Assembly (NCBI GenBank): GCA_001662655.1
Contig: KV460206.1
Source: Pseudogymnoascus verrucosus
Lineage: Eukaryota
Strand: one strand, 5' to 3'
Length of the DNA: 64,000 nucleotides
The notes under the pieces were generated by a model, which was not told the DNA's origin, searched no databases, and saw only the letters and a list, made by a program, of their open reading frames with translations. Shown piece by piece: positions 1,985-21,331 of this stretch. A program made the position numbers and the translations under genes. Numbering within the stretch: the first letter of the stretch is position 1; the number at the start of each line of letters is the position of its first letter.

Positions 1985-4900
1985 TTAGAGGCGAAGCTCC
2001 TTCAAGATTTGATCCGCCATGTTCTTGTATTGCCAAGTGCCACCAGTCAGTCTCTTGAACTGGATTCCGTGCAGAGAGAACAGTGGAACCTTGACAATCA
2101 AGATCTCAAACTCAAGAATCATGCTGCCACCAAGATCGCTCTGGACATGGGTGGTAGTCTCTCCTGCAGCTCGCCTCGACGAGCTGCGTTGCTTAGATCG
2201 ACCGCTACTATCATCAGACACGTCCGAGTTGGAATAGCTCGCATCTGCAGCAGCACGACGAGAATTCTTTGGTGCTGGAGCGATTCTCTCAACATCTCTA
2301 TATTCATCACGCTCTCGATCATTACCGCCACCCAAAGTAAACCCACCAAAACTAATGCGGCGACGGTGCGATGACCCCGGAGGCTGCAAGTTCTGGGAGC
2401 TGGAAGGAACATCAACCACCTTCTTCAAGTCGATGCTGGGCATGTGGCGACACTGGAATCCTCCCCGAACCTCTTTGTAATTCACGTTGAGTTGTTTCAA
2501 AACGCGAATGATATCCGTTCTAATGGTGTTGACAGGCTTCGTCGAGGTGGTGGACACACTGAAGAGACCCTTCAGGAACACAGGTCTCGCGTTTTCGGCA
2601 TTGCCACTGCCATAGCTATCGCCATTATTATCGGATATCTCCAGACTGGCCTTCTCTGGGATATCTTTCTCCTTTGCCTCCTCACGTCGGGCACGGCGAG
2701 CTTGGATGCTCTCTCTCCTAGCGTGGCCGAGCGATTTCGCCCTATTGGTTCCAGAGCGAGGGGCTGCGGTCTGATCCTCATCGCGAGACTTCTCATTCAT
2801 GGAAGATCTCGCCCCACTGGCAAGTGAGTGGTCCGAACCGCTTGTTGCTGGTGGCTCTTTGTACGTCACCCGCGGCTTAGGTTCACGATCTTCGTGGCGT
2901 CGGCGGTATTCTGCCGAATTGACGCTTGTGGATCTTCCGATCATCTTGCCTGCCCTAACTCCGTCTGCTGTTTGTGGTGGAGTCAACAAGTCGCGGTCCT
3001 GACGGTTGCTGGTGCTGGAAGGCAGAATGGTGCTTGATTGAGCGCCACGGTCACGTTCTCTAACACGACGAATACTGAAGCTTTTTCTCAGTGTCGTCGG
3101 TGCCTCACTTGGCGATCGCACTGTTACGGCTGGCGGATAATGCTTGTCAATGTTTCGCTCAGGTGCATCCCTGCGTTTACGTGTGCTGAATCGCCTAAGA
3201 AGGCTGGTTGCAGCACTCTCCTTCTTCAGTTGCCCGCCCGGCGCATCAATGGCAGCTGGTGAGGTCGGTCCGCTAGCTCCTCCAACTTTCAAGTTCTTCA
3301 TGGATTCCGTTACATCGTCTTCGCCATGTGTTCGTGCACGGGCGCGAGTTCTTCCTCCGGTGGCCGTCTCACCTGGCATTTCATACGCTGCCGTATTGGT
3401 GTGTGCAGCCTGAGGGGGAGCAATCTCAGCCATTTGCAGAGGCGCCTCATTTGGAGAACGTGGCAGGCTAGTAGCCCCTGGGTTGGCTGCTCTACGATCC
3501 CTATCTTGCTTCTCACGAACCAAGTAGTAGACGGATATCAGAGGATGGAATGCATTTACAGGGTCGTTGCCCAATTGCAAGCCTTCAGTCGAAGGTGTTG
3601 TGAGGGTGTCCTTGCTATTTGTGGAGCTTCTGCGCTTGTAGAAGTCAAAGCCAAATCCCCTCTTCTTCTCAACATCTCTCGGAGTTTGCGATCCCTTGTC
3701 GCGGGCGGCCAATCGAATACCGCGTTGGTAGTCGTCAGACTCAATAACTTCCGTCAATTGCTGGTGGATAAGTTCCGGCGCACCGAAATCAAATCCTGTC
3801 ATGGCACGTACCACCTCAGGATCAAGAGGAAGCTGGATTGGTTCACGTGCGGGGAGATGGTTCTCTGGAGGGAAGCCAAACCCCTTGAGTACCCAGGGAT
3901 GATTCATGATTTCATGAAGAGTGGCTCTTTGTTTTGGGTCTGTTACAAGCATCCGTGAGATGAGATTTTTACAGTCTGGTTTTGTTAGTGGATGGGTCAT
4001 GTTGTAAGAACGGGATAAGCTTACCAGAACTGAGCCAACTCGGGTACTCGACAATGCCCTTCTTGATTTTGGCATGCAGAGCTTGCATGCTCTGGTCATC
4101 AAATGGAACTTTGCCACACACCAGAACATACAAAACAATTCCGAAACTCCAGATGTCAACCTCAGGACCGGTATACGCCTTGGCCTGCAGCAATTCTGGT
4201 GCAGCAAAGTATAGGCTACCGCAGAATGTCTTCAGATGCGATTTTGGTGCAAACAAGTTGCTCAAGCCGAAATCGATGATTTTAATATCACCCGTCTTGC
4301 TGATGAGAATGTTCTCGATCTTCAGGTCTCTATGGATGATGCTATTGCGGTGACAATAGTCAAGAGCACTCGAAATTTGGCGTGTGAACTTTCTCGCCAG
4401 CTTCTCCTTCAATTTACCATGAGAGATGATATAGTCAAGCATTTGGCCCCCATTGACGTATTCGAATAGCATATACCAATGGTGGCTCGTGCGTACGACG
4501 TCTCGCATGCCGCAGATATATGGGTGGTCGAGGAGTGTCACAATTGCGGCTTCTCTTGCAGTGCGTACCTCCTTGGAACGTTCGGCACGCTCACGATCAG
4601 CCCGGCTCTGCTGTTGGGATTCATCGGGGGTCGAGCCGCGGGGAACGATCTTGACAGCAACCTGCGGGGGACAGTTAGTAACCTAGTGACGATGTCATGG
4701 GCTATTGTTTCGCTTACCTCTTCTTCACCTTCAACACGTCTCGCTAGCTTCACCTTCCCCATACTTCCGGAACCAATGGTCTTTCCCAGGATCCAGTTAC
4801 CTGTTTGAGCGGGTATCACAGTTCTCGATCTTCCTTGTCTCGTGGCCTTTTGTTCCACGGGGACCACAACTGGCGCTGGGCCAGCGGCACTCGAGCTACC

Positions 4901-5272
4901 AGCTGCGCTCGGCATATCTGAGGTGGGATGATGGCGCGACGAGCTTCTGGTATGTCCGCTTCTCGATGACTCCGTCCGAATATGGTTGGTACGATCGGTG
5001 GATCTCTTCCTGCTTGATTGAGCTACGTTCGTTGTCTCATAGTCTTGTTGCGGGAGTATCTCGTCCACGCGTCGCGAGGTCGGGCGTGAATTCGAGGAGT
5101 GGGCGCGAACTGGGCTGGGAACAGCAGCGGAAGGTCTCGATCTCGTCGACTGCGTCCGGGATGGATTCGAATACGATTGACTGTCGCGCCTGGAAGATGA
5201 TCCCTGCCCCTCACGTCTGGACATGCCCTGTGCTTCAACTGCACTAGGAGGAGCTGAGGCGGTTGCTGACAT
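1985..5272 (-). CDS. KIN1: KIN1/PAR-1/MARK family Ser/Thr kinase with C-terminal KA1 domain
   Basis: Motifs [32 protein letters not shown] and the KA1 end [41 protein letters not shown]. Introns at 4662-4717 and 3976-4024 join three ORF-track fragments. First ATG at 5272 (MSATASAPP). Confidence 0.93.
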
Positions 5273-6012
5273 TGTTAGCCAGCGACGCCGCTGGGGATCA
5301 ATGCAGCCAAGCTTCTCGCGGTGCCGTATGTACTCGATATCAAGATCGAACAAGACGTTTAATGGAAACGAAAGCCTGATATGCTATCGCGACAGGTGTG
5401 GTTGGTTTGCAGTGCTGGGCGTCATCAACGTTGCATGGTTGGTGGTGGATGTTGCTATGGCCCAAGGTAGGTTGGCAAGGTTGGCAGACGCAAATGCGGG
5501 TCAACGGTAAGCGTGGCAGGTCAGTCGCGGCATTTGTTGACGCTTAAAGTCTGAATTTATAGTTGGGATATAGGTATTATTTCAAAGGAGATTCACATAA
5601 AGGAGACATAAATCAAAATGTGTCTCTAAGGGCTAGTTTCATGCTCGATGACATTCCGAGATGGGACCTGACATGCTGTCGTACCTTAGCACAGGACGGA
5701 CAAAGCAACCTAAGAACCTCACCCGAGGCGACTGGTTACTTAGCGTTAATCCATGGGAGTCAACGGCATACTTTGCGCTACCAGATACCAAGCCAATAAT
5801 AAAGTAATCTATGCTGTGCAGCTTGAGCTTGGAAATGCCAACTATTGCTTCGACTCGATTTCACATTTCCGTAGCTCTCATTGTTCCCAAATAGACTCAA
5901 ACAGTACTTAAGCTTCCTGGGCGCGCTTAAAGCGGCTAAGATAAGGACGTGAATCGTAATCCAGCAAGGTCAGGCAAAACGAAACATTTGCCAACCGCAT
6001 TCATGTCGAGAA

Positions 6013-8182
6013 ATGTCCGTGAAACGAACGCGCGCTGCTTATGAGTCTGATTTGCAGGCCAAGCAGAGCCCCTTTGTAGCTTATGGCACTCCGCTCCCTC
6101 CGCTTGACCCTGATGTCCGGGATGACGGGTCGTATGTTCCTGTTTGGAAGCAAGAGGTGACGGATGAGAGGGGAAGGAAACGTCTACATGGAGCTTTCAC
6201 TGGTGGATTTAGCGCAGGGTATGATTTCTCGTCTTCGCTGGGCTGAACTATTACTGACTGTGTATTGTAGCTACTTCAACACTGTTGGATCGAAAGAAGG
6301 ATGGACTCCATCCACCTTTGTCTCCTCGCGATCGAGTCGCAAGAATGGCGAAACGAAGATAATAGAACGGCGACCCGAGGATTTTATGGACGAGGAAGAT
6401 CTTGCGGATGCCGAAGAACACCAGAGGGTCCTCACAGCTGGGGATTTCACGGCATTGGGCTCTACGGAAGGTGAGGTCATGAAGCGTGGTGGGTACATGG
6501 ACCTTTTCAAAACCGAGGGCGAGACAATGGGAGTCAAACTGCTGAAGAAGATGGGCTGGCGAGAAGGCCAAGGGGTGGGACCAAAAATCCGAAGAGCTGC
6601 AAGACTGGGCATGGAGATTTCCAGTGCTGGCCAGCCCCAAGAGCAGCATCTTTTTGCGCCAGATAATACGCCAATGATAACATTTATTCGAAAGACCGAT
6701 CACAAAGGGTTGGGGTTTGCTGGCTCCGCAAAGCTAGGGGAAGAAAACCAAAACAATGTTGTTTCGAAACCGGAAGTCGACAGGGGGGAAGTGTTTGGAA
6801 CGACCCGGCCAATGACAACCAAGAAGGCAAAGAAAGCTGTTCGTGGCGGTATCGGCATGGGGGTTTTAAACGACACTGGTTCTGATGACGAAGACCCATA
6901 CGAAATTGGCCCGAAGATCTCATACAATAAGGTTATTGGCGGCGACAAGAAAAAGAAGAACCCCGTCATAAGTGGCGCGGCCAAGCCGGTGTTTATCTCT
7001 AAAAAGGCTGCGGCAGCAAGAGCATCTCTGGGATTCCGTAAATGTCACGACGGACGCCTTCCTTTAGATGGGTTCGTATTGGGCAGTGGGACGGATTCCG
7101 TTGATGTCACATCGATGGATAAATATCGACCAGTCGAAATTCCCCCGGATTGGACATCTGCAAAAACAACAACCGCTGCTCCTGGAGCATCTGACTATGT
7201 ATCAACTGCAGATGCTGCCAGAGCTTCGACATTAGACCCGAAGTCGCGTGCAGCATTGCTGGGCGAGGCACCTTTGCCAGGGAAGTCCGTCTTCGACTTC
7301 CTCTCCAAGTCCGCTCGTGATCGCATCGCTTCAGCATCGGGGAAGACGAACCTGCCTGCAGCTCTAGGAGAAGTCCCAGAGGGTTACGTTCCACCACCCG
7401 AACGCCGACGAGAATCGCCAGGTCAAATTCCAAACATTGACATTGATGTCGCCGTAGCTGCTCTGGGCCGCAGCGGGAGTGGTTGGATGCCATATTCTGA
7501 CAATGAAGAAAAACGGTTACGGTATACGATTTATTTGGAAATACAAGCAGGCGTCAGAGATGGGCTTCCAGAGAAGGAACCGGGTGTGGCAAAAGAAGAC
7601 TGGATCAGGGAGCTTCAGGAGTTTGCACATAGTGCGCAGATCTTCAAACCAATGACTGGAATGATGGCAACTCGGTTTACCTCCTCATCATCAGCACCTA
7701 CGGCATCTGAAGGCGCTTCGAACAAGCCCGGGACTTTACTCAGTAAGCCGCAGCCAAAGCAGGAAGATCCAGCCGAGGCCGCGGCTAAGGCTGGTATGTT
7801 TGGGCGCCTGACGAGATCAGAAGAAGACTTCTACCCAACTAGGCTACTGTGCAAGAGATTTGGTGTCCGCCCTCCAGCTCATGTACAGCCAGACCCCGAG
7901 AACGAAAGGGCCGGTGGGAAAGATTCCGGTCCAGCAACTAATACCGGCCAACCACCCCGGGCGTCGGAGCTGATTTCAAAATCTGATATCGACGATTTGA
8001 TCAGGGAGTCTGGTGGCCGCAACCAACACTATCAGACTGCGACTGGCGGAGATGTAATACCACCGGTAGAAAGGCCTAGGGAAGTTGTGGTTGATACGGA
8101 ACGGAACGAAGCATTAGAAGGCGAAAGACCCGGAGAAGCCGTGTTTAAGTCAATTTTCGGCGATGGTAGTGATGAAGAATAG
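6013..8182 (+). CDS. G-patch domain protein (GPATCH1/DUF1604-type splicing factor)
   Basis: [39 protein letters not shown] across intron 6219-6270; G-patch [18 protein letters not shown]-terminal [13 protein letters not shown] and FKSIFGD. Confidence 0.88.
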
Positions 8183-8973
8183 AGATTCATTATTTGGTAT
8201 CAAGAAAGTTGATCGTTGCTGCATGCTATGATTGATACCGACCGCACGACTCTATTAACCCCTGGATTATCCAGCATTGCAACATGACCGCCTGGGCCAC
8301 TCATATCCTCGCCGCCGCTGATATTTTTACAACACTGCGGCAGCTGTCGAGCCAGCACCACTAAACCACCCCACCCGCTCGTCCTCCCCGGTATCGTCGC
8401 GCCCGGGCGCTCATCAACATAGGGATGTTTGCTATTATATAGTAGAGCCATGATGCCTCTTTGCAGAGTGTTAGGATCGCCGTTAAACTAATCCTTTAGG
8501 ACATATTGTTATAGCTTTTAGATTATCTGCCTCCCTTCGCGGATCTCTGGCTGATACAGTGCAATTGGGGGTTTCAGTACACTTGGTAATCTATAAATAG
8601 TGTATAGTTTTGCATGGTATGATTGGGGTTGCTTTTGGTAATTTTGCATCTTTCTGCGAATAGAAGATAAAAAGTGGATCCGTGATTCAATGATTTTGTG
8701 GTGACCCCTATAATGTGTGATGGCGATGTGAGTTTTGATAGGTGAGGTGTTAGAAAGTAGTTTAGTGACCACCTCCGCACAAGCTCCGATAGACTTTCCA
8801 TGACGGCGGCTACAAGTGGCAGGGGTCCCACAAATTGGCCAAGCACCAAGCAACAGCCAACGCCATATCAACAACAAGCGAGGCAAGCGATAGGAGAGAG
8901 AGAGAGCTCACCAGCAGCAACAACTACACAATAACACCACCACCCCCAACCCCGTCAATACACCTGGATATAT

Positions 8974-8985
8974 ATGCCCATTTGA
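8974..8985 (+). promoter_or_regulatory. Minimal uORF (ATG CCC ATT TGA) in frame with WHI2
   Basis: Read directly from sequence. It is the last ATG in any frame before 9604. Whether it lies inside the transcript is unknown. Confidence 0.45.
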
Positions 8986-9603
8986 TACCCCGTTGGTATA
9001 GATCCTCGCGCATCCACCCCAGCGATATCTTTTACCCATCGCATCAGCAACACATCCGACAATCCAGCCGCGAGGCCCAACTCATCGTCTCTAACCCCCA
9101 TCTCCGCCCCATCGACCACGACGTTGTCAGACACGCCCGACGCCCGCGCCGGCCCCGTTCCCATCGGCCACGGCCACCGCGCGCAGCACGACAAGTCGCA
9201 AGAGGAGCAGTCGCAGTCGCAAATTGAGCGCAGCACGCCGTCCTCACCGCCCCCGCAGTACCCGCAGGAATCAGCAGGAGCCTCTTCCTCGCCGCGACCC
9301 TGTTCTCGCAGCCCACCACCGTTTTCGCCGCACGACAATTACTTTTCGCCCACCGCCGCTGATCCTGGCGCCGTTGACGAGGTAGCAGTTTCCGACGACG
9401 CAGCGAGCTCAGCTTCAGTACCAGCGTACGCATCGCTAGCCCCTGAATTTGCAGAGAGGACACGAGCAGACGACGCGGTTGCAGAGACAAAGGCAGCGCT
9501 ACCGCGGGATAATAAGGGGGAATCTTCTTGTAAGAAGGACGACGAGGAGCCTCCGCCTGCATATACGGAAGGGTCGAGCCCGTTACTCTCGTTTAGCTAT
9601 CTG

Positions 9604-10745
9604 ATGGCGGCCGCGGGAGGAGTTGCGAGTATTCTTACTCAGGTGCAGCAGGGTGGTCCGCCGCCGATTAATACGCTTGGAGGTGAGTTTTGTCGGTTCG
9701 CGTGCGGGAATTGACAAAGAGGAAGCTAACGAGATAGATGTTGGTGCCGATGAGAATATCACTATGGACCTGAGGTAGGTTTATGAATGGACGCTGGTCG
9801 GGGGGCGTGGCTAACATCTACTCTTTAGGGGCACGCGCTTCACTCTATCAAGAGACGAACTCTTAACACTCCCCGAATTCGTCCTCCTATCCCTCTTCCC
9901 CAACGGGCTTCTACCAGATGGCCACGTAAACGCCTACCAAGAAGGGGACGCCTTCCAAGTCGACGTAAGTCTCCATTTCCCCACCACACCCGACCCTTAC
10001 CATACCCAACCCACCAAAGCACATAGCTAACCCTCGTCTTTAGTATGACCCCGCCTCCCTCCAATACATGCTCGAATTCTTCCGCAACGTCGCGCAAACC
10101 ATCCCCGACGTGCCCACCCTCGACGACTCCGACGTAGGCGCCAACCTCGACAACCCCGCCGGGTCGGCACGCGACATGCTCCGCGACCGCGCGGGCATCA
10201 TCGTGCTGCGCGAGGACCTGGATTTCTACGCCATCCCGCCGCGCGCGGACATTGAGCAGAGCGAGATGGTGGAGGTGAAGAGGGCGGCGGGGAAGGCGCT
10301 GTTGAGGCAGGATGGGATTTTTTCGGGGCTGAGGAGGAGTGAGGAGACGGGGACGACGGAGCAGCATTTGATTGAGATGTTGACTGCTGGGTGAGTCTTG
10401 CTTTACCTTTCCCCCGTGTTAGTTGGTTGCTTGTGTGTCAGTACTAATATCGTCTCTAGCGGATTCAACCACACAGACGGCTGGGGCCACCGCGCTGGCG
10501 AACCCAACAAAGCCGTAATCTGCAGCCTCGCCCTCGCCCGTCTGCGCACCGACGTCCGATCCGGCGCCGAAGGCGGCGCCGCTGTAGGCATGGCGCAGAA
10601 ATTGTTGCTGTTTTGGCGCAAACCGGCGAGGAGGTGCTGGTGGGAAGGTGTCGAGCTGGAGGGTGTCGAGGGCGTGGAGGGGAAGCTGAAGGTCTGGATT
10701 AGGAGGGTGTGGACGCTGGAGATGAGTGTTATTGGGTTGAGATAG
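9604..10745 (+). CDS. WHI2: Whi2 growth/stress regulator (BTB-like fold); AUG-initiated form, about 5 exons
   Basis: Spliced product MAAAGGVASILTQVQQGG..DVGADENITMDLRGTRFTLSRDELLTLPEFVLLSLFPNG..IIVLREDLDFY..QKLLLFWRKPARRCWW..VWIRRVWTLEMSVIGLR. Four GT-AG introns start near 9683, 9775, 9965 and 10391. Confidence 0.87.
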
Positions 10746-13676: not shown

Positions 13677-14607
13677 GAAAGAACACACCCCCAGTAGCCA
13701 ATCTCCCCTCTCCCTCCCATCCCACCAGAGCGGAAAAAACGACACTACATGTCCCATTCCCCCGCCGTTGTCCCTCCGCTCGATTGTCAGCCATTGGGTA
13801 GTCTCCGGCCAATGGGACACATGCACTGCCCCATCCTTCGCTACAGAATAGTGGAGATACTACAGCGGACGGCGCGGCGTGCGGACACTGCGCTCGCCGC
13901 GCATTGGTGATTTAATGGCCTGTCTGTCTGCTTACATGTACAGGCAGGGCGAGGCACAATGGCGTGGGGAGGTATCGACAAGGCGGATTGGTGGTGCGGG
14001 GGTACTTGGTACGGCTGTCGGTTGCCAGACTGTGGGAGATGGATCGGCGTTACTGTACTGTGATTGTTCCCACTGTTCGCCCTTTGCTGTCACCCCTGCT
14101 TTTTGTCTCAGTGGGAGAATGAGAGGAGGGGAATAGGTACACACCCGTTAGACTACAATTTCACACCACTTTAGGATACGTATCCCTGTCTTCCCTAATA
14201 GTTTGTCTGTGAAGAGTGTGCTCTGGTGTGCTGTGGTGTGCTGTGGTTTACTGTACTGTCGTATGTTCTCTTTTGCGGCTCCCTCCTACCAAAAGATACT
14301 TCCTCAAACCCTTCTTTTTTCGCTTGTTCTCTCCTCTAAACCGTTCCATCCACTCCCCCCTCCACTAACACACATAACTAACTCCACCCCCCTCCCCACC
14401 ACCCCCCCTACCACACCAAAAACTACAAACTACGACTTCCCACAGCCCACTAAGCGCTAAATTTGTCAGGCTGCCACGAAAATAGTTATAACCCACCCAC
14501 TGCCCCAGGCTTCACTTTTTTTCTTTTCTTCCCTTCTTTTCTCTCTTCAACCCAAAATACTATCACAACACAACAAATACATCAACACCATCGTCATCAT
14601 TCACAAA

Positions 14608-14616
14608 ATGGCTTAA
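14608..14616 (+). promoter_or_regulatory. cpc-1 uORF1 (ATG GCT TAA)
   Basis: cacaaaATGGCTTAA in strong context; a very short first uORF as in GCN4/cpc-1. Confidence 0.85.
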
Positions 14617-14812
14617 CCGCCCTTAGTCTTCCAGACGCTTTCAAGATTCATTTCGAAACTTTAAACAACTTACCCAACCCCACTCCACAATACCCAGTTC
14701 TTTTCGAAGACCTGAACAACAGCATTCCTCGGAACAGCTCAAGCTCTCAACAACTACCCACCACCATTCTACCTAACGTCTTTACGACGGCTTCCCAAAC
14801 CCTTCAGTCACC

Positions 14813-14962
14813 ATGGCCTACCCAACCCCAATCAACGAGCCCTTTGGCACCACAGCAATCGCAGCAACCCTCCCCACAGACGGATTATCAAACTCCTCCG
14901 GACTTCGTGCTCTTCCCGCGTCGTTCTCTCGAGGCGTCTCCCAACGCTCAGAATATCCCTAA
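14813..14962 (+). promoter_or_regulatory. cpc-1 uORF2 (49 codons, inhibitory type)
   Basis: ATG GCC TAC CCA ... TAT CCC TAA, out of frame with the main ORF. It is the only ATG between uORF1 and the main AUG. Confidence 0.85.
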
Positions 14963-15269
14963 TCTGCCCCGCAACCACGCCCCCAGTGGTAGCAATCGTC
15001 GTCACTCCGCAAACCCCCTGTCTGCCCCGTCCCTGCAGAACCAGAGAGTAGCCGCGATCATCCAAGGCACAGGCCATCAGATTTCTTCTCCAGCGTTTAC
15101 AAACCGGTATAATCCATTCCCGCAGCAACAGCAGTTCTACGCGCTGTCTGCCCCGTCGTCGTCCGCCGCTCTACAGTCCCAGATCAGGACCCGTCCCCAG
15201 GTCCCACTGTTCTCGCAGAGCACCGGCAACATCCATTCCAACAACAAGCAATCGTTCCCCCCCAACAAC

Positions 15270-16052
15270 ATGGCGCAAGGTAATTATTCACTGTCCCATT
15301 CACAACCCTGCGGTGATTCACACTCACACCTCCGCCCAGACATGAACTTATTCGACGACTTCGACTCGTTCGACCTCAAGTCCTCGGACAACATGAACTT
15401 CCCGGATCTCGACTACAAGTACTCTCCCGCAGTGCCCACCATGTACTCGCCCGCGCCAGCCATGAACCGAACCGATTCCGCGTCCACGAGCATGGGCACG
15501 GTGTCGCCGCAGGACCTCATGGTCCGCGACGCCACCTTCTCCGCGCCCAACTCCACCGTCTTCACGAACCTGACGTCGCCCTCCCAATACAACGAGTCGC
15601 CCGACTACCTCCACGACCTCGACGTCTCCCCGATGTACAACTCGGACGACCTCACCAACGGCGACCCGTGGTTCCCCCTCTTCCCCGAAGGCGACGCTTC
15701 CTTCCCCGCCCCCGTCGCGGTTGACACTTCTCCTCTCGCCGTTGACGAGGAGCTCGAGGTTGGTGACGCTCTCCGCGAGCGCCGCCGTCGCTCCGACAGC
15801 TCTCCTCACTCCAAGGCCGCTTCGGCAGCCGCGGGAGTCAGCGCCCGCAAGCGCAACCAGCCCCTCCCACCCATCGTGGTCGAGGATCCCAACGACACTG
15901 TCGCCATCAAGCGCGCGCGCAACACTCTTGCAGCGCGTAAGTCGAGGCAGAAGAAGATGGAGCGCTTTGACGAGCTTGAGGCGGAGATTGCAAAGATCGC
16001 TGCCGAGAGGGATATGTGGAAGGCGAAAGCGCTCGCGAGGGGCGCAAACTGA
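15270..16052 (+). CDS. cpc-1: Cross-pathway control bZIP transcription factor Cpc1/CpcA (Gcn4 orthologue)
   Basis: Motifs GTVSPQDL, SAPNSTVFTNLTSPS, WFPLFP and the bZIP PLPPIVVEDPNDTVAIKRARNTLAARKSRQKK. Main AUG at 15270; intron 15280-15339. Confidence 0.96.
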   Translation: MAQGNYSLSHSQPCGDSHSHLRPDMNLFDDFDSFDLKSSDNMNFPDLDYKYSPAVPTMYSPAPAMNRTDSASTSMGTVSPQDLMVRDATFSAPNSTVFTNLTSPSQYNESPDYLHDLDVSPMYNSDDLTNGDPWFPLFPEGDASFPAPVAVDTSPLAVDEELEVGDALRERRRRSDSSPHSKAASAAAGVSARKRNQPLPPIVVEDPNDTVAIKRARNTLAARKSRQKKMERFDELEAEIAKIAAERDMWKAKALARGAN

Positions 16053-18595: not shown

Positions 18596-19650
18596 TCACG
18601 AAGTCGGGGCGAGGGCGGGGGCGGGAGGACTCACGTTATCTGCTCCCCCGGCCGGCCCGCCCATTCCCGCCTCGGATGCGGGCATGATGGTGTCTCCTTC
18701 TACTACGACCTCTTTATCCCGCAGCTGCCGCATGAGTTGCAGAAACTGGCTGTTGGCGAATTTATCGCTCTGGTCGCCCTGCACGCTCGTCAGGAGCGCG
18801 CCGGCTGTGCGGGCGAGATCATCGCTTTCTTGGGCGGGTGTGAGGTGTTGTTGGGAGGGCGCGTCGGGGTGGTGAATTGCGTCTGCGCCGATTGGGGCGG
18901 CTGTGAGGTGGCCTTCTTGGAGGGCGTGAGAGAGGGAGGCTTGTTCGGATTGCAGCTCTGATTGTGCGGCTTGGTCGAAGGCGGCAGCGAAGGCAGCTTC
19001 GTCGAAGGTGCCGATCTCGGAGTTGAGTTGTTGGGGTTGCTCGGGGTGCATTTGCTGAGCGGGTTGGTACATGGGGGTTTGGTACATGGGCTGTCCGCCC
19101 ATGCCGAAGGGGGTTGTGGCGAGGGAGGAGAGGCGCTCGAGAGGGGCGTTGTAGGAGTGTTGCTGTTGTTGTGGCATTCCGGCTTGGGTATTATTCATCT
19201 GTGCGAATTCCTGGTGCCATCCCCCCGCGTGCTGGGCCTGTGGGAGACCCTGCTGCTGCATCCCTGGGGACGCGATGGCCAGGCGCTGGAAATCGTTCGC
19301 CCATGATGCGCCAGGGCCGGCATTCATGTGCTGCCCCGGCTGGGGGGTGTGCGCGTGCTGGAAGCCGGGGTGGAAGCCGGCTTCGGGGTGTTGGAGGGGG
19401 AGCTGGCCGGCTTGGAAGGCTTCGAATTCGGGGTCGAGAGTGCGGGCGCTGGGACCGGCGCTGCGGAAGCCCTGGGTTGGTGTTAGAGGGTGTGGTGAGG
19501 GTGGGATTTGGAGGGGGGATGAGATGGGGATCTTACTTGTGATTGTGGCGTTCGGGCGGAGAGGCGGTCTTGTTGGAGGGTTCGGTCGCCTTGGCTTTGT
19601 TTTTGGAAGTTTTGGAGGGCGTTGGAGGGGCCGCACATGGAGTCGGCCAT
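18596..19650 (-). CDS. PEX20: Peroxisomal PTS2 co-receptor Pex20-like
   Basis: N-terminus MADSMCGPSNALQNFQK with the conserved Cys; WxxxF motifs (WANDF, WHQEF); C-terminal KFANSQFLQLMRQLRDKEVVVEG resembles the Pex7-binding segment; no TPR domain. Intron 19472-19536. Confidence 0.8.
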
Positions 19651-20120
19651 TTTGGCGGTTTGTTGTGTTGTTGGTTTGTTGTAGATGTGAAGTATGAAGT
19701 TCGGGGGGAGGTTGTGATATTCGGTCCGTGGTATCAAGCCGAGGCTATCTCGGTGACTGGAATGGTATTGTGTGTGATAGCGGCCCGAGACAGCGGTTCT
19801 ATATGCGTCAATGTAGAAATTACTGGAACAAACAAACGTCAATGAGAAATGCGAGCAAACAAGTGCTTTTATGGTCGCTTTCACAGGCAAAATCGTGTAT
19901 TGGTTAGGTCAATATTAAGGAAGCTGGGGATTCCATGATGTAGGCGGGGGTCTAATTGGGTGGGTCCAGCCGGGCGAGTCTTGGCTCGGAGCGCGCACTT
20001 CAACCCACTCAGCCTCAAGAACAAGGCCACGATAGGACACATAAGGGATTCAAACATTCACCAGCAACAGCCTCTCAATTACCACAACTCTTGTTTCCTG
20101 GTGCTCCAAACTTTGTCAAC

Positions 20121-21331
20121 ATGGTAAGCACGTCTCTTGATTGCCGGATTCCTGACAATCCTGCATTCCTGGCTGCGGCGAGGTGATGGACGGCGCTAAT
20201 ACGAAGCTATAGGCACAAGTTATCACCAACTCGGGGCACGATGACATGATCGTAAGTCTATCCCCCACCAACCCGCTGAGTTTACGGAGGAGGCGGGCAT
20301 CAGAGAGGGATATGTCAGGATATAAGTCTGGATGTTAACACCCTGCCAGCACGATGCAGTCCTCGACTACTACGGGCGCCGTCTCGCGACTTGCTCTTCA
20401 GACCGCACCGTGAAGATATTCGAGGTGGATGGAGAAACACACAAATTACAAGAGACATTAAAAGGGTACGCCACGTCTCCCCCTGCGGACCGTTTTGTCC
20501 CTTCCCCCCCCTTTCCCTCCATCTCCCACGCCCCTCCCATCTCTCCCCCCTCCCCCTCCTCTCCCACCCCTCTAACACCCCTCCAGCCACGAAGGCGCCG
20601 TCTGGTGCGTCTCCTGGGCGCACCCCAAATACGGCAACATCCTCGCCTCGGCCGGCTACGACGGCAAAGTCTTCATCTGGCGGGAATCCAACTCAACCTG
20701 GTCCCGCGTCTTCGACTTCGCCCTGCACACCGCCTCCGTGAACATCATCTCCTGGTCGCCCCACGAATCCGGCTGCCTCCTCGCCTGCGCCAGCTCCGAC
20801 GGCAACGTGTCCGTCCTCGAATTCAAGGACAACAGCATGGACCACAAGATCTTCCAAGCGCACGGCATGGGCGTGAACAGCGTTTCCTGGGCCCCTAGCG
20901 CCGCACCAGGCAGCTTGGTTAGCGCAGGTGGCGCGGCGGCGGGCGCACAGCGCCGCTTTGTTACGGGGGGGAGCGATAATACCCTCAGGCTGTGGGCGTA
21001 TGACCAGGCGAGCCAGACGTATAAGCAGGAGGGTGCTGCGCTGACGGGACACACGGACTGGGTGCGCGATGTGGCGTGGTCGCCGTCGGTGCTGCAGAAG
21101 TCGTACATTGCGTCTGCGTCGCAGGATAAGACGGTGCGGATCTGGACGAGCGATGCGGCGCACCCGGGGCAGTGGGAGAGCAAGGAGCTCAAGTTTGATG
21201 CGGTTATCTGGCGCGTCAGCTGGAGCTTGAGCGGGAATGTGTTGGCGGTTAGTGGGCAGGATAACAAGGTTAGCTTGTGGACTGAGAACTTGAGCGGCGA
21301 GTGGGAGTGCGTCAAGACGATTGAGGAGTAA
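20121..21331 (+). CDS. SEC13: COPII / nuclear pore / SEA complex WD40 protein Sec13
   Basis: ATG|intron, [88 protein letters not shown]. Confidence 0.96.

Follow-up and report, generated by a model that had tools for sequence, protein, structure and literature searches.

WHI2 and its leader

This study concerns the 5′ region of WHI2, a growth and stress regulator gene of Pseudogymnoascus verrucosus carried on the plus strand of a 64,000-nucleotide stretch of contig KV460206.1 (GenBank assembly GCA_001662655.1). We refer to this whole stretch as the window, and all coordinates are positions within it. The main coding sequence starts at the ATG at 9604 and consists of five exons (9604-9682, 9738-9774, 9829-9964, 10044-10390, and 10460-10745) that encode a protein of 294 amino acids (aa), compared with 297 aa for WHI-2 of Neurospora crassa. 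An initial annotation of this DNA had drawn attention to the leader of the gene, in which a three-codon upstream open reading frame (uORF), ATG CCC ATT TGA (MPI*, 8974-8985, in frame with WHI2), is followed by a long stretch that is open in the WHI2 frame, lacks ATG as far as 9604, and contains near-cognate codons with A at −3. All of these features were verified in the sequence. In the frame of the WHI2 ATG, stops are absent from 8986 to 9714, giving 206 codons before the ATG, and the only plus-strand ATG triplets between 8800 and 9738 are those at 8974 and 9604, so that 8975-9603 is free of ATG in every frame. The near-cognate codons ACG (9118), ACG (9121), and TTG (9124) lie in the WHI2 frame, each with A at −3. 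When 8977-9603 was shuffled 2,000 times with dinucleotide frequencies preserved, 3.5 ATG triplets were expected, the probability of finding none was 0.0135, and the probability of an open WHI2 frame was 0.008; an open frame and freedom from ATG occurred together in 0 of the 2,000 shuffles.

All four GT..AG introns of WHI2 are missing from contigs of three public runs from a close relative (X1, X2, and X3), unlike the contigs of a DNA-like run (X19), which retain them. Because the X1-X3 contigs lack exactly these four introns, we take the three runs to be derived from transcripts. One X1 contig (record 3) is colinear with the window from 8977 to 9680 and then continues into the spliced exons, X3 record 22 covers 8980-9172, and another transcript-like contig covers 9016-9543, whereas RNA-like contigs from the three runs are absent over 8635-8955. 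The colinear contig implies that the mature mRNA contains the leader in unspliced form. An intron at 8996-9130, which had been raised as a way in which an upstream exon might supply an AUG, is thereby excluded. Three differences between the relative's contig and the window are displayed within the stretch ahead of the main ATG (9255, 9447, and 9594), all of them synonymous and at third positions; 32 more are spread across the 3.2-kb stretch compared.

Conservation of the extension

A phmmer search with the translation of 8986-9681 against 1.84 billion representative sequences returned 187 matches at E ≤ 1e-3, 163 of them at E ≤ 1e-10. The matches align from about query residue 47-85 to the query end at residue 232, and most are open-frame calls that end in intron 1, with few full gene models among them. 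The motif around the main Met is found in 121 of the best 150 matches, and 108 of these 121 are free of Met between their first residue and the main Met. Furthermore, in the best 150 matches, the 120 residues before the main Met include 5 Met in 14,056 residues, and these are confined to three long or fused gene models (P0092, P0101, and P0105). The best-conserved block, EPPPAY..SPL.SF.YLMAAAGG..SI.TQVQQGG, spans the main Met, which is itself invariant in alignments A1 (40 sequences) and A3.

A scan of metagenome contigs yielded 80 related loci, 81 with the window. The main ATG was recognizable in 76 of the 81 (L002, L008, L043, L064, and L065 were dropped), and these collapse to 64 distinct loci, among which the contig ends inside the extension in five (L020, L029, L052, L070, and L072). 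The length of the extension, measured from a conserved NTG codon described below, ranges from 123 to 215 codons, with a median of 150 and a value of 160 in the window. Between the NTG and the main ATG, 57 loci contain 0 in-frame stops, versus 107 and 290 in the other two frames. The ratio of nonsynonymous to synonymous substitution rates (dN/dS) in the extension is 0.05-0.24 in 33 of 33 close pairs, which come from nine clusters, and the changes fall mostly at third positions. Similarity is lower in the 138 nucleotides (nt) ahead of the start motif than in the extension for 10 of 11 pairs, and gaps that disrupt the frame occur there in 9 of 11. On this comparative evidence, the extension is a coding sequence under purifying selection and not an empty leader. 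An open frame, absence of AUG, and dN/dS below 1 had been named in the initial annotation as features to look for in Pezizomycotina WHI2 loci; the related loci show an open frame, near absence of ATG, and low dN/dS.

An alternative account of the conservation is that the leader is untranslated and contains an RNA element or part of a gene on the opposite strand, and the minus strand of the window does have a 182-aa open frame at 9044-9592. However, no locus of the 57 has any antisense frame open across the region, the three antisense frames containing 347, 215, and 256 stops, and the substitutions concentrate at third positions of the sense codons, with the low dN/dS given above. No stable or conserved fold was found either, and we regard an untranslated leader as extremely unlikely. 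An antisense gene over the extension was rejected because no antisense frame is kept open in the 57 loci.

Probable start site of the extension

Conservation sets in with the peptide TLSDT..., which is mostly encoded by A(T/C)C ACG TTG TCA GAY ACG. An in-frame NTG codon is aligned here in 57 of the 64 distinct loci (TTG in 45, GTG in 11, and CTG in 1) and corresponds to the TTG at 9124 in the window; with the five loci that end before the site set aside, it is present in 57 of 59 evaluable loci. The base at −3 is A in 51 of the 57 loci and G in the other 6 and is thus always a purine. In a profile of 41 nonredundant loci anchored at this codon, information content, about 0 bits at positions farther upstream than −12, increases between −11 and +5, with T at +2 and G at +3 of the start codon in 41 of 41. 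As a codon control, TTG and CTG were counted at three further conserved Leu positions, where they occur in 0 of 39, 0 of 33, and 0 of 31 loci, versus NTG in 41 of 41 at the start position. The open frame extends upstream of the NTG for a median of 27 codons and a minimum of 4, and in-frame stops lie 4-9 codons upstream in some loci (L033, L046, L051, and L053, at 4-6 codons, as well as L011 and others).

The position of this site at the 5′ edge of conservation suggests that the extension most probably starts at the conserved UUG at 9124, with its adjacent ACG. The cluster at 9118-9124 had been singled out as the start in the initial annotation, and it matches the conserved site. The extension had been described there as 206 codons long; the frame is indeed open throughout, but the conserved and probably translated part comprises the 160 codons from TTG 9124.

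Within the 60 nt downstream of the start codon, we saw no sign of an RNA hairpin in the 41 loci (mean z score of 0.03, with 0 of 41 below −2), and RNAalifold predicted 0 pairs for 21 sequences after the start codon. A hairpin after the start codon was rejected on these grounds.

Public gene models

The extension matches 318 public proteins between 301 and 961 aa long. Those listed, 120 in number, are from Sordariomycetes and Leotiomycetes, and Eurotiomycetes, Dothideomycetes, and a lichen fungus came in through a cluster look-up. The models place their initial M at unrelated positions, even between close species; those of Botrytis and Sclerotinia, for example, begin with MPRAITLS, MWSTTLS, MFRSTTLS, or MYGKDATTLS. 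Several models are fused to a neighboring gene (encoding a G-patch protein, peroxin 20, and others) or are marked partial. One cluster at 90% identity, with 12 members from Blastomyces and Histoplasma, includes proteins of 294 to 930 aa under several names, at least 3 of the 12 appearing to be the neighboring gene and not WHI2. A missing AUG would lead gene finders to misplace the start, which explains the inconsistency of the public models.

The same models are what would speak for translation of the extension from an ordinary AUG, supplied by a spliced-on upstream exon or by an ATG farther upstream in the frame: many NCBI models, with lengths of 450-616 aa, place the extension behind an M, and in two models (P0259 and P0274, seen as protein only) an M is aligned to the position of the NTG. 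However, the modeled N termini are unrelated among close species, and conservation stops at −11. In the window, the sole upstream in-frame ATG (8974) meets a TGA after three codons, and the transcript contig over 8977-9680 runs colinear with the genome without a joint. Furthermore, in L033 the gap between the upstream stop and the TTG is 12 nt long and contains no AG. An ordinary AUG start is therefore very unlikely.

The upstream ORF

The initial annotation had also suggested that the WHI2 leader mimics that of cpc-1, possibly with a switch of the isoform by amino acid starvation. This part of the proposal is not supported. MPI* is not conserved, and the upstream ATGs of other loci lie at differing positions and in differing frames, with ORFs of unlike length and peptide. 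The 400 nt upstream in L069 are free of ATG, and at least nine loci have none within about 200 nt. The window's transcript-like contigs start 3-6 nt past the uORF ATG (at 8977 and 8980). The uORF ATG itself forms the end of a GGATATATATG run (8964-8976) that resembles a TATA element.

A cpc-1/GCN4-like mechanism, in which the uORF and reinitiation in the leader would switch the isoform in amino acid starvation, could draw on the three-codon uORF 150 nt before the TTG, on the presence in about 30 of 57 loci of some short ORF with an ATG 50-150 nt before the NTG, and on the action of Whi2 in amino acid signaling (PMC6126876). Nevertheless, we judge it quite unlikely, given that the upstream ORFs agree in neither position nor frame, length, or peptide and are missing near the start in the loci just mentioned, that the transcript-like contigs begin after the uORF ATG, and that control of the GCN4 type requires two or more uORFs of distinct kinds, which were not seen, the window having a single one of three codons.

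Avoidance of AUG and the downstream start

From the NTG to the main ATG, the 57 loci contain 6 ATG triplets in 26,880 nt, versus 263 ± 15 expected by shuffling, and all 6 are out of frame. For the 41 nonredundant loci, the corresponding numbers are 6 and 85.9 ± 8.0 (dinucleotide-preserving shuffles). The ATG-free zone before the main ATG measures 459-1,019 nt in 57 distinct loci. Avoidance extends to synonymous codon choice: where a following G would turn a final T into part of an ATG, 4 of 313 NAY codons of the extension end in T, versus 242 of 531 before other bases. A control block of the main coding sequence (exon-4-like; found in 23 of the 41 loci and not in the other 18) shows no such avoidance, with T in 65 of 150 NAY codons before G versus 83 of 230 otherwise, and holds 161 ATGs in 8,063 nt. 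This avoidance of ATG down to synonymous choice is consistent with a stretch that serves as both a coding sequence and a scanned leader, and it argues for use of the downstream AUG as well.

The few ATGs that do occur, one or two per locus, lie at −172 to −373 in five distinct loci. In four of these (L023, L039, L049, and L078), the ATG arises in the codons for APAY (Tyr TAT followed by GCN) at about −190 to −203 and opens an ORF of 3-6 codons that ends at least 170 nt before the main ATG, which is a lineage-specific exception to the ATG-free rule. L003 has two ATGs outside APAY; one opens an ORF of 1 codon, and the ORF of the other, with 19 codons, stops 112 nt short of the main ATG. Of ATG and the near-cognate triplets, ATG alone is strongly depleted in the extension of the 41 loci, GTG and ATT being mildly below expectation; general avoidance of near-cognates was not seen, with CTG, TTG, and ACG at or above the dinucleotide-shuffle expectation. 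As a side observation, the in-frame Leu codons of the extension (start excluded) are TTG or CTG in 57 of 341 cases (17%), versus 135 of 236 (57%) in the main coding sequence. Counted over all frames, TTG and CTG are not depleted, and the in-frame bias may reflect composition.

It could be argued that only a long form exists, in which case the main AUG would be a conserved internal Met and the 294-aa protein an annotation artifact. The best-conserved block does cross the main Met without a break, and the base at −3 of the main ATG is C in 38 of the 64 loci (G in 25 and A in 1), with G at +4 in 64 of 64. However, avoidance of ATG in all frames, as seen in the NAY codons and not in their control, makes sense only if ribosomes scan on toward the main ATG, and a near-cognate start is expected to be leaky. 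Moreover, expressing the short ORF of N. crassa gives a functional product (PMC6987382). Production of the long form alone is therefore unlikely.

Proposed expression of two forms of Whi2

Taken together, these results make it likely that WHI2 yields a long, UUG-started form beside the AUG-started form by leaky scanning. The WHI2 mRNA has an unspliced leader of at least 627 nt without AUG, in which scanning ribosomes would first meet the near-cognate cluster ACG ACG UUG, ending with the UUG at 9124 with A at −3. A fraction of them would initiate there to make a 454-aa long Whi2, consisting of the 160-residue extension and the 294-aa body, and the remainder would continue over 480 nt in which every frame is kept clear of AUG, reach the AUG at 9604, and make the 294-aa protein. 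This short form would be the protein described in databases and papers, so that the Whi2 annotated and studied to date is probably the shorter of two forms. The long non-AUG form with PPxY motifs put forward in the initial annotation has gained comparative support from the conserved NTG, the purine at −3, the dN/dS of 0.05-0.24, and the avoidance of ATG. The coordinates of the elements are collected in Table 1.

Table 1. Elements of the WHI2 5′ region and main coding sequence in the window
Feature	Position	Strand	Basis
3-codon uORF, MPI*	8974..8985	+	Present in sequence; without conservation in related loci
5′ leader before proposed start	8977..9123	+	Transcribed, ATG-free, unconserved
Conserved start-site motif (−11 to +5), holding ACG 9118, ACG 9121, and TTG 9124	9113..9128	+	Profile of 41 loci, nucleotide alignment
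Proposed near-cognate start TTG (A at −3, T at +4)	9124..9126	+	Aligned codon in 57 loci
Putative N-terminal extension, 160 codons	9124..9603	+	phmmer, dN/dS, frame counts
PPQY, first PY motif	9250..9261	+	Upstream PPxY in 39/57 loci
PPPF of PPPFSSLY-type block	9313..9324	+	PPxF in 57/57 loci
ETKxALPxDxK block, two invariant lysines (AAG 9490, AAG 9514)	9490..9516	+	Alignment A1
PPAY, second PY motif, 17 residues before main Met	9553..9564	+	PPAY/PPPY in 57/57 loci
Main (annotated-type) WHI2 ATG	9604..9606	+	Met invariant, alignments A1 and A3
WHI2 main coding sequence, 294 aa, five exons	9604..10745	+	Exon model, introns absent from transcript contigs

Several points weigh against this proposal. 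UUG is a weak start codon in Neurospora, and the base at +4 of the NTG, where G is optimal, is T in 50 of the 57 loci, G in 6, and C in 1. Two of the 59 evaluable loci have no NTG: L034 has TCG at this position but keeps the ATC ACG before it, and L079 is unclear. Owing to the kinship of the loci, their counts cannot be treated as independent events, which inflates the P values. Three runs from a single study on one close relative supply the RNA evidence, in the form of contigs and not reads, whose RNA nature was deduced from the missing introns. No Pfam family, the SKP1/BTB/POZ domain of these BTB/KCTD-like fungal regulators included, was found in the exon pieces of the window or in three full-length homologues, which means that the name WHI2 rests on the database names of homologues (the automatic names "general stress response protein Whi2," "WHI2-like protein P4H10.16c," and "phosphatase activator"). 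The analysis shows that the extension is coding, that the start site and its context are conserved, that AUG is avoided, and that the leader is unspliced, whereas actual initiation at the UUG or ACG, the ratio of the two forms, and the binding of Rsp5 considered below are inferred. In addition, overexpression of the short form is enough to rescue the phenotypes tested in N. crassa (PMC6987382), implying that the extension is not needed for those phenotypes.

Docking motifs and a possible function

The extension is rich in S, P, A, D, and E, contains no Met and no Trp, and looks like a low-complexity linker carrying short motifs. Both PPxY (PY) motifs reported in the initial annotation, PPQY and PPAY, were confirmed at their positions (Table 1). 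PPAY or PPPY precedes the main Met in all 57 loci, by 17 residues in 56 and by 18 in the other; a second, upstream PPxY is present in 39, and every locus has a PPxF. K169 and K177 of the ETKxALPxDxK block and P190, P191, and Y193 are invariant in the 40 sequences of alignment A1. AlphaFold2 run with a 40-row alignment gave a mean predicted local distance difference test score (pLDDT) of 48.6, too poor to use, and showed no regular structure in the extension save one short, low-confidence helix just before the main Met.

PPxY is an established ligand of the WW domains of Rsp5/Nedd4 ligases, whose PY-motif partners include Sna3 (PPAY), Bsd2, and the arrestin-related adaptors. In its motifs, the WHI2 extension resembles these partners, having PPxY and nearby lysines in a region without a predicted fold. 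The PY motifs may thus let the long form of Whi2 bind the WW domains of Rsp5/HulA, as an adaptor or as a substrate, and such docking is our leading idea for the function of the extension. A more specific version, which we put forward tentatively and consider rather improbable as it stands, is that long Whi2 is a translationally tuned Rsp5/HulA adaptor. Through its PY motifs, the HECT ligase would be recruited to the cell periphery, where the Whi2-Psr1 phosphatase complex lies, or Whi2 itself would be marked for turnover, and the long/short ratio would be set by how stringently start codons are chosen (eIF1, eIF5, and eIF2 phosphorylation). If this were true, fungi across the Pezizomycotina would register their nutrient or stress state by changing the Whi2 isoform, and all work on the short ORF would have missed that arm.

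The residues that follow the start (9127-9150 in the window, and their counterparts in related loci) make up a conserved patch, S-D/E-S/T-Q-E-x-x-x-G-P-S-x-S, that includes an [ST]Q site; the patch could be a phosphorylation or N-terminal processing signal.

Relation to known systems

The closest parallel is cpc-1 of N. crassa and its homologues in the Pezizomycotina, which have an extension translated from conserved near-cognate codons (Ivanov et al. 2017, PMC5487733). WHI2 and cpc-1 have in common an AUG-less in-frame extension, conserved near-cognates in good context, purifying selection, a Pezizomycotina-wide spread, and gene models unable to place the start. They differ in that the cpc-1 extension bypasses two functional uORFs, whereas WHI2 has no conserved uORF and an extension free of AUG throughout, and in that initiation at cpc-1 was shown in vitro (PMC5487733), whereas the WHI2 start is proposed from sequence comparison. 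By that comparison, WHI2 is a member of the class of conserved near-cognate extensions defined by cpc-1 and, beside cpc-1, a second deeply conserved case in the Pezizomycotina. The window also contains a cpc-1/GCN4 homologue with a C-terminal bZIP (14454-16052, plus strand), in a 532-codon stop-to-stop frame. That frame would fit the published near-cognate extension of cpc-1, and two such genes would then lie about 4 kb apart, with cpc-1 downstream by chance.

Among genes with near-cognate dual isoforms are yeast ALA1 and GRS1. Others are the Cryptococcus genes for LeuRS, with adjacent ACG and AUU codons, and ArgRS (PMC7049704). These four resemble the expression proposed for WHI2 in that some ribosomes leak past a near-cognate in strong context and start at a downstream AUG, giving two isoforms, and tandem near-cognates occur among them, as with ATC ACG TTG in WHI2; however, their extensions are short organelle-targeting signals, whereas that of WHI2 is long and acidic and has PY-type motifs. 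Human KCTD11, a Whi2-like BTB protein, is reported to start at an upstream AUU that adds 39 residues (PMC6566181). As proposed for WHI2, the annotated AUG form is N-terminally short and the longer form comes from a near-cognate. The KCTD11 extension completes the BTB fold, whereas the fungal one is a low-complexity segment of 123-215 residues with PY motifs, upstream of the folded part.

In yeast, Whi2 restrains TORC1 when amino acids are low, and in filamentous fungi it governs whether cells fuse, conidiate, form appressoria, and are pathogenic (PMC6126876, PMC6987382, and PMC8295519). N. crassa WHI-2, encoded by NCU10518, was described as a 297-aa protein, and whi-2 expressed from Pccg-1 with green fluorescent protein rescued the deletion (PMC6987382), which implies that the short form alone can act. 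As the Neurospora work described a 297-aa protein and drove whi-2 from a foreign promoter, any role of the conserved front part of 123-215 residues would have been overlooked. WHI2 is missing from the cpc-1 paper and its supplements (PMC5487733), from the main text of the fungal start codon paper (PMC7049704), and from the Rsp5 substrate-array supplements. One paper that names both Whi2 and Rsp5 mentions Rsp5 in another context. Within the limited collection searched, Whi2 is paired with non-AUG or near-cognate starts for KCTD11 only, and no such paper concerns the fungal gene.

An extension of about 160 conserved N-terminal residues with ubiquitin-ligase docking motifs is general in filamentous ascomycetes, and the long form of Whi2 that would carry it most likely starts at the conserved UUG. 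The finding supplies a concrete start site and motif set for this form and accounts for the inconsistent public models.

Neighboring genes

Directly upstream of WHI2 lies a gene for a G-patch protein (6161-8182, plus strand). GenBank models from Neonectria fuse G-patch and WHI2 (1151 and 1160 aa), which indicates that the synteny is old and the fusion an annotation artifact. An open frame at 18596-19744 on the minus strand resembles the N-terminal part of the fused "peroxin 20" models (compare P0050), which explains that name on some WHI2 models. The WHI2 region is flanked by genes for a Ser/Thr protein kinase (1985-5383, minus strand) and a WD40 (Sec13-like) protein (20326-21331, plus strand), both recognized by eye from ORF translations.

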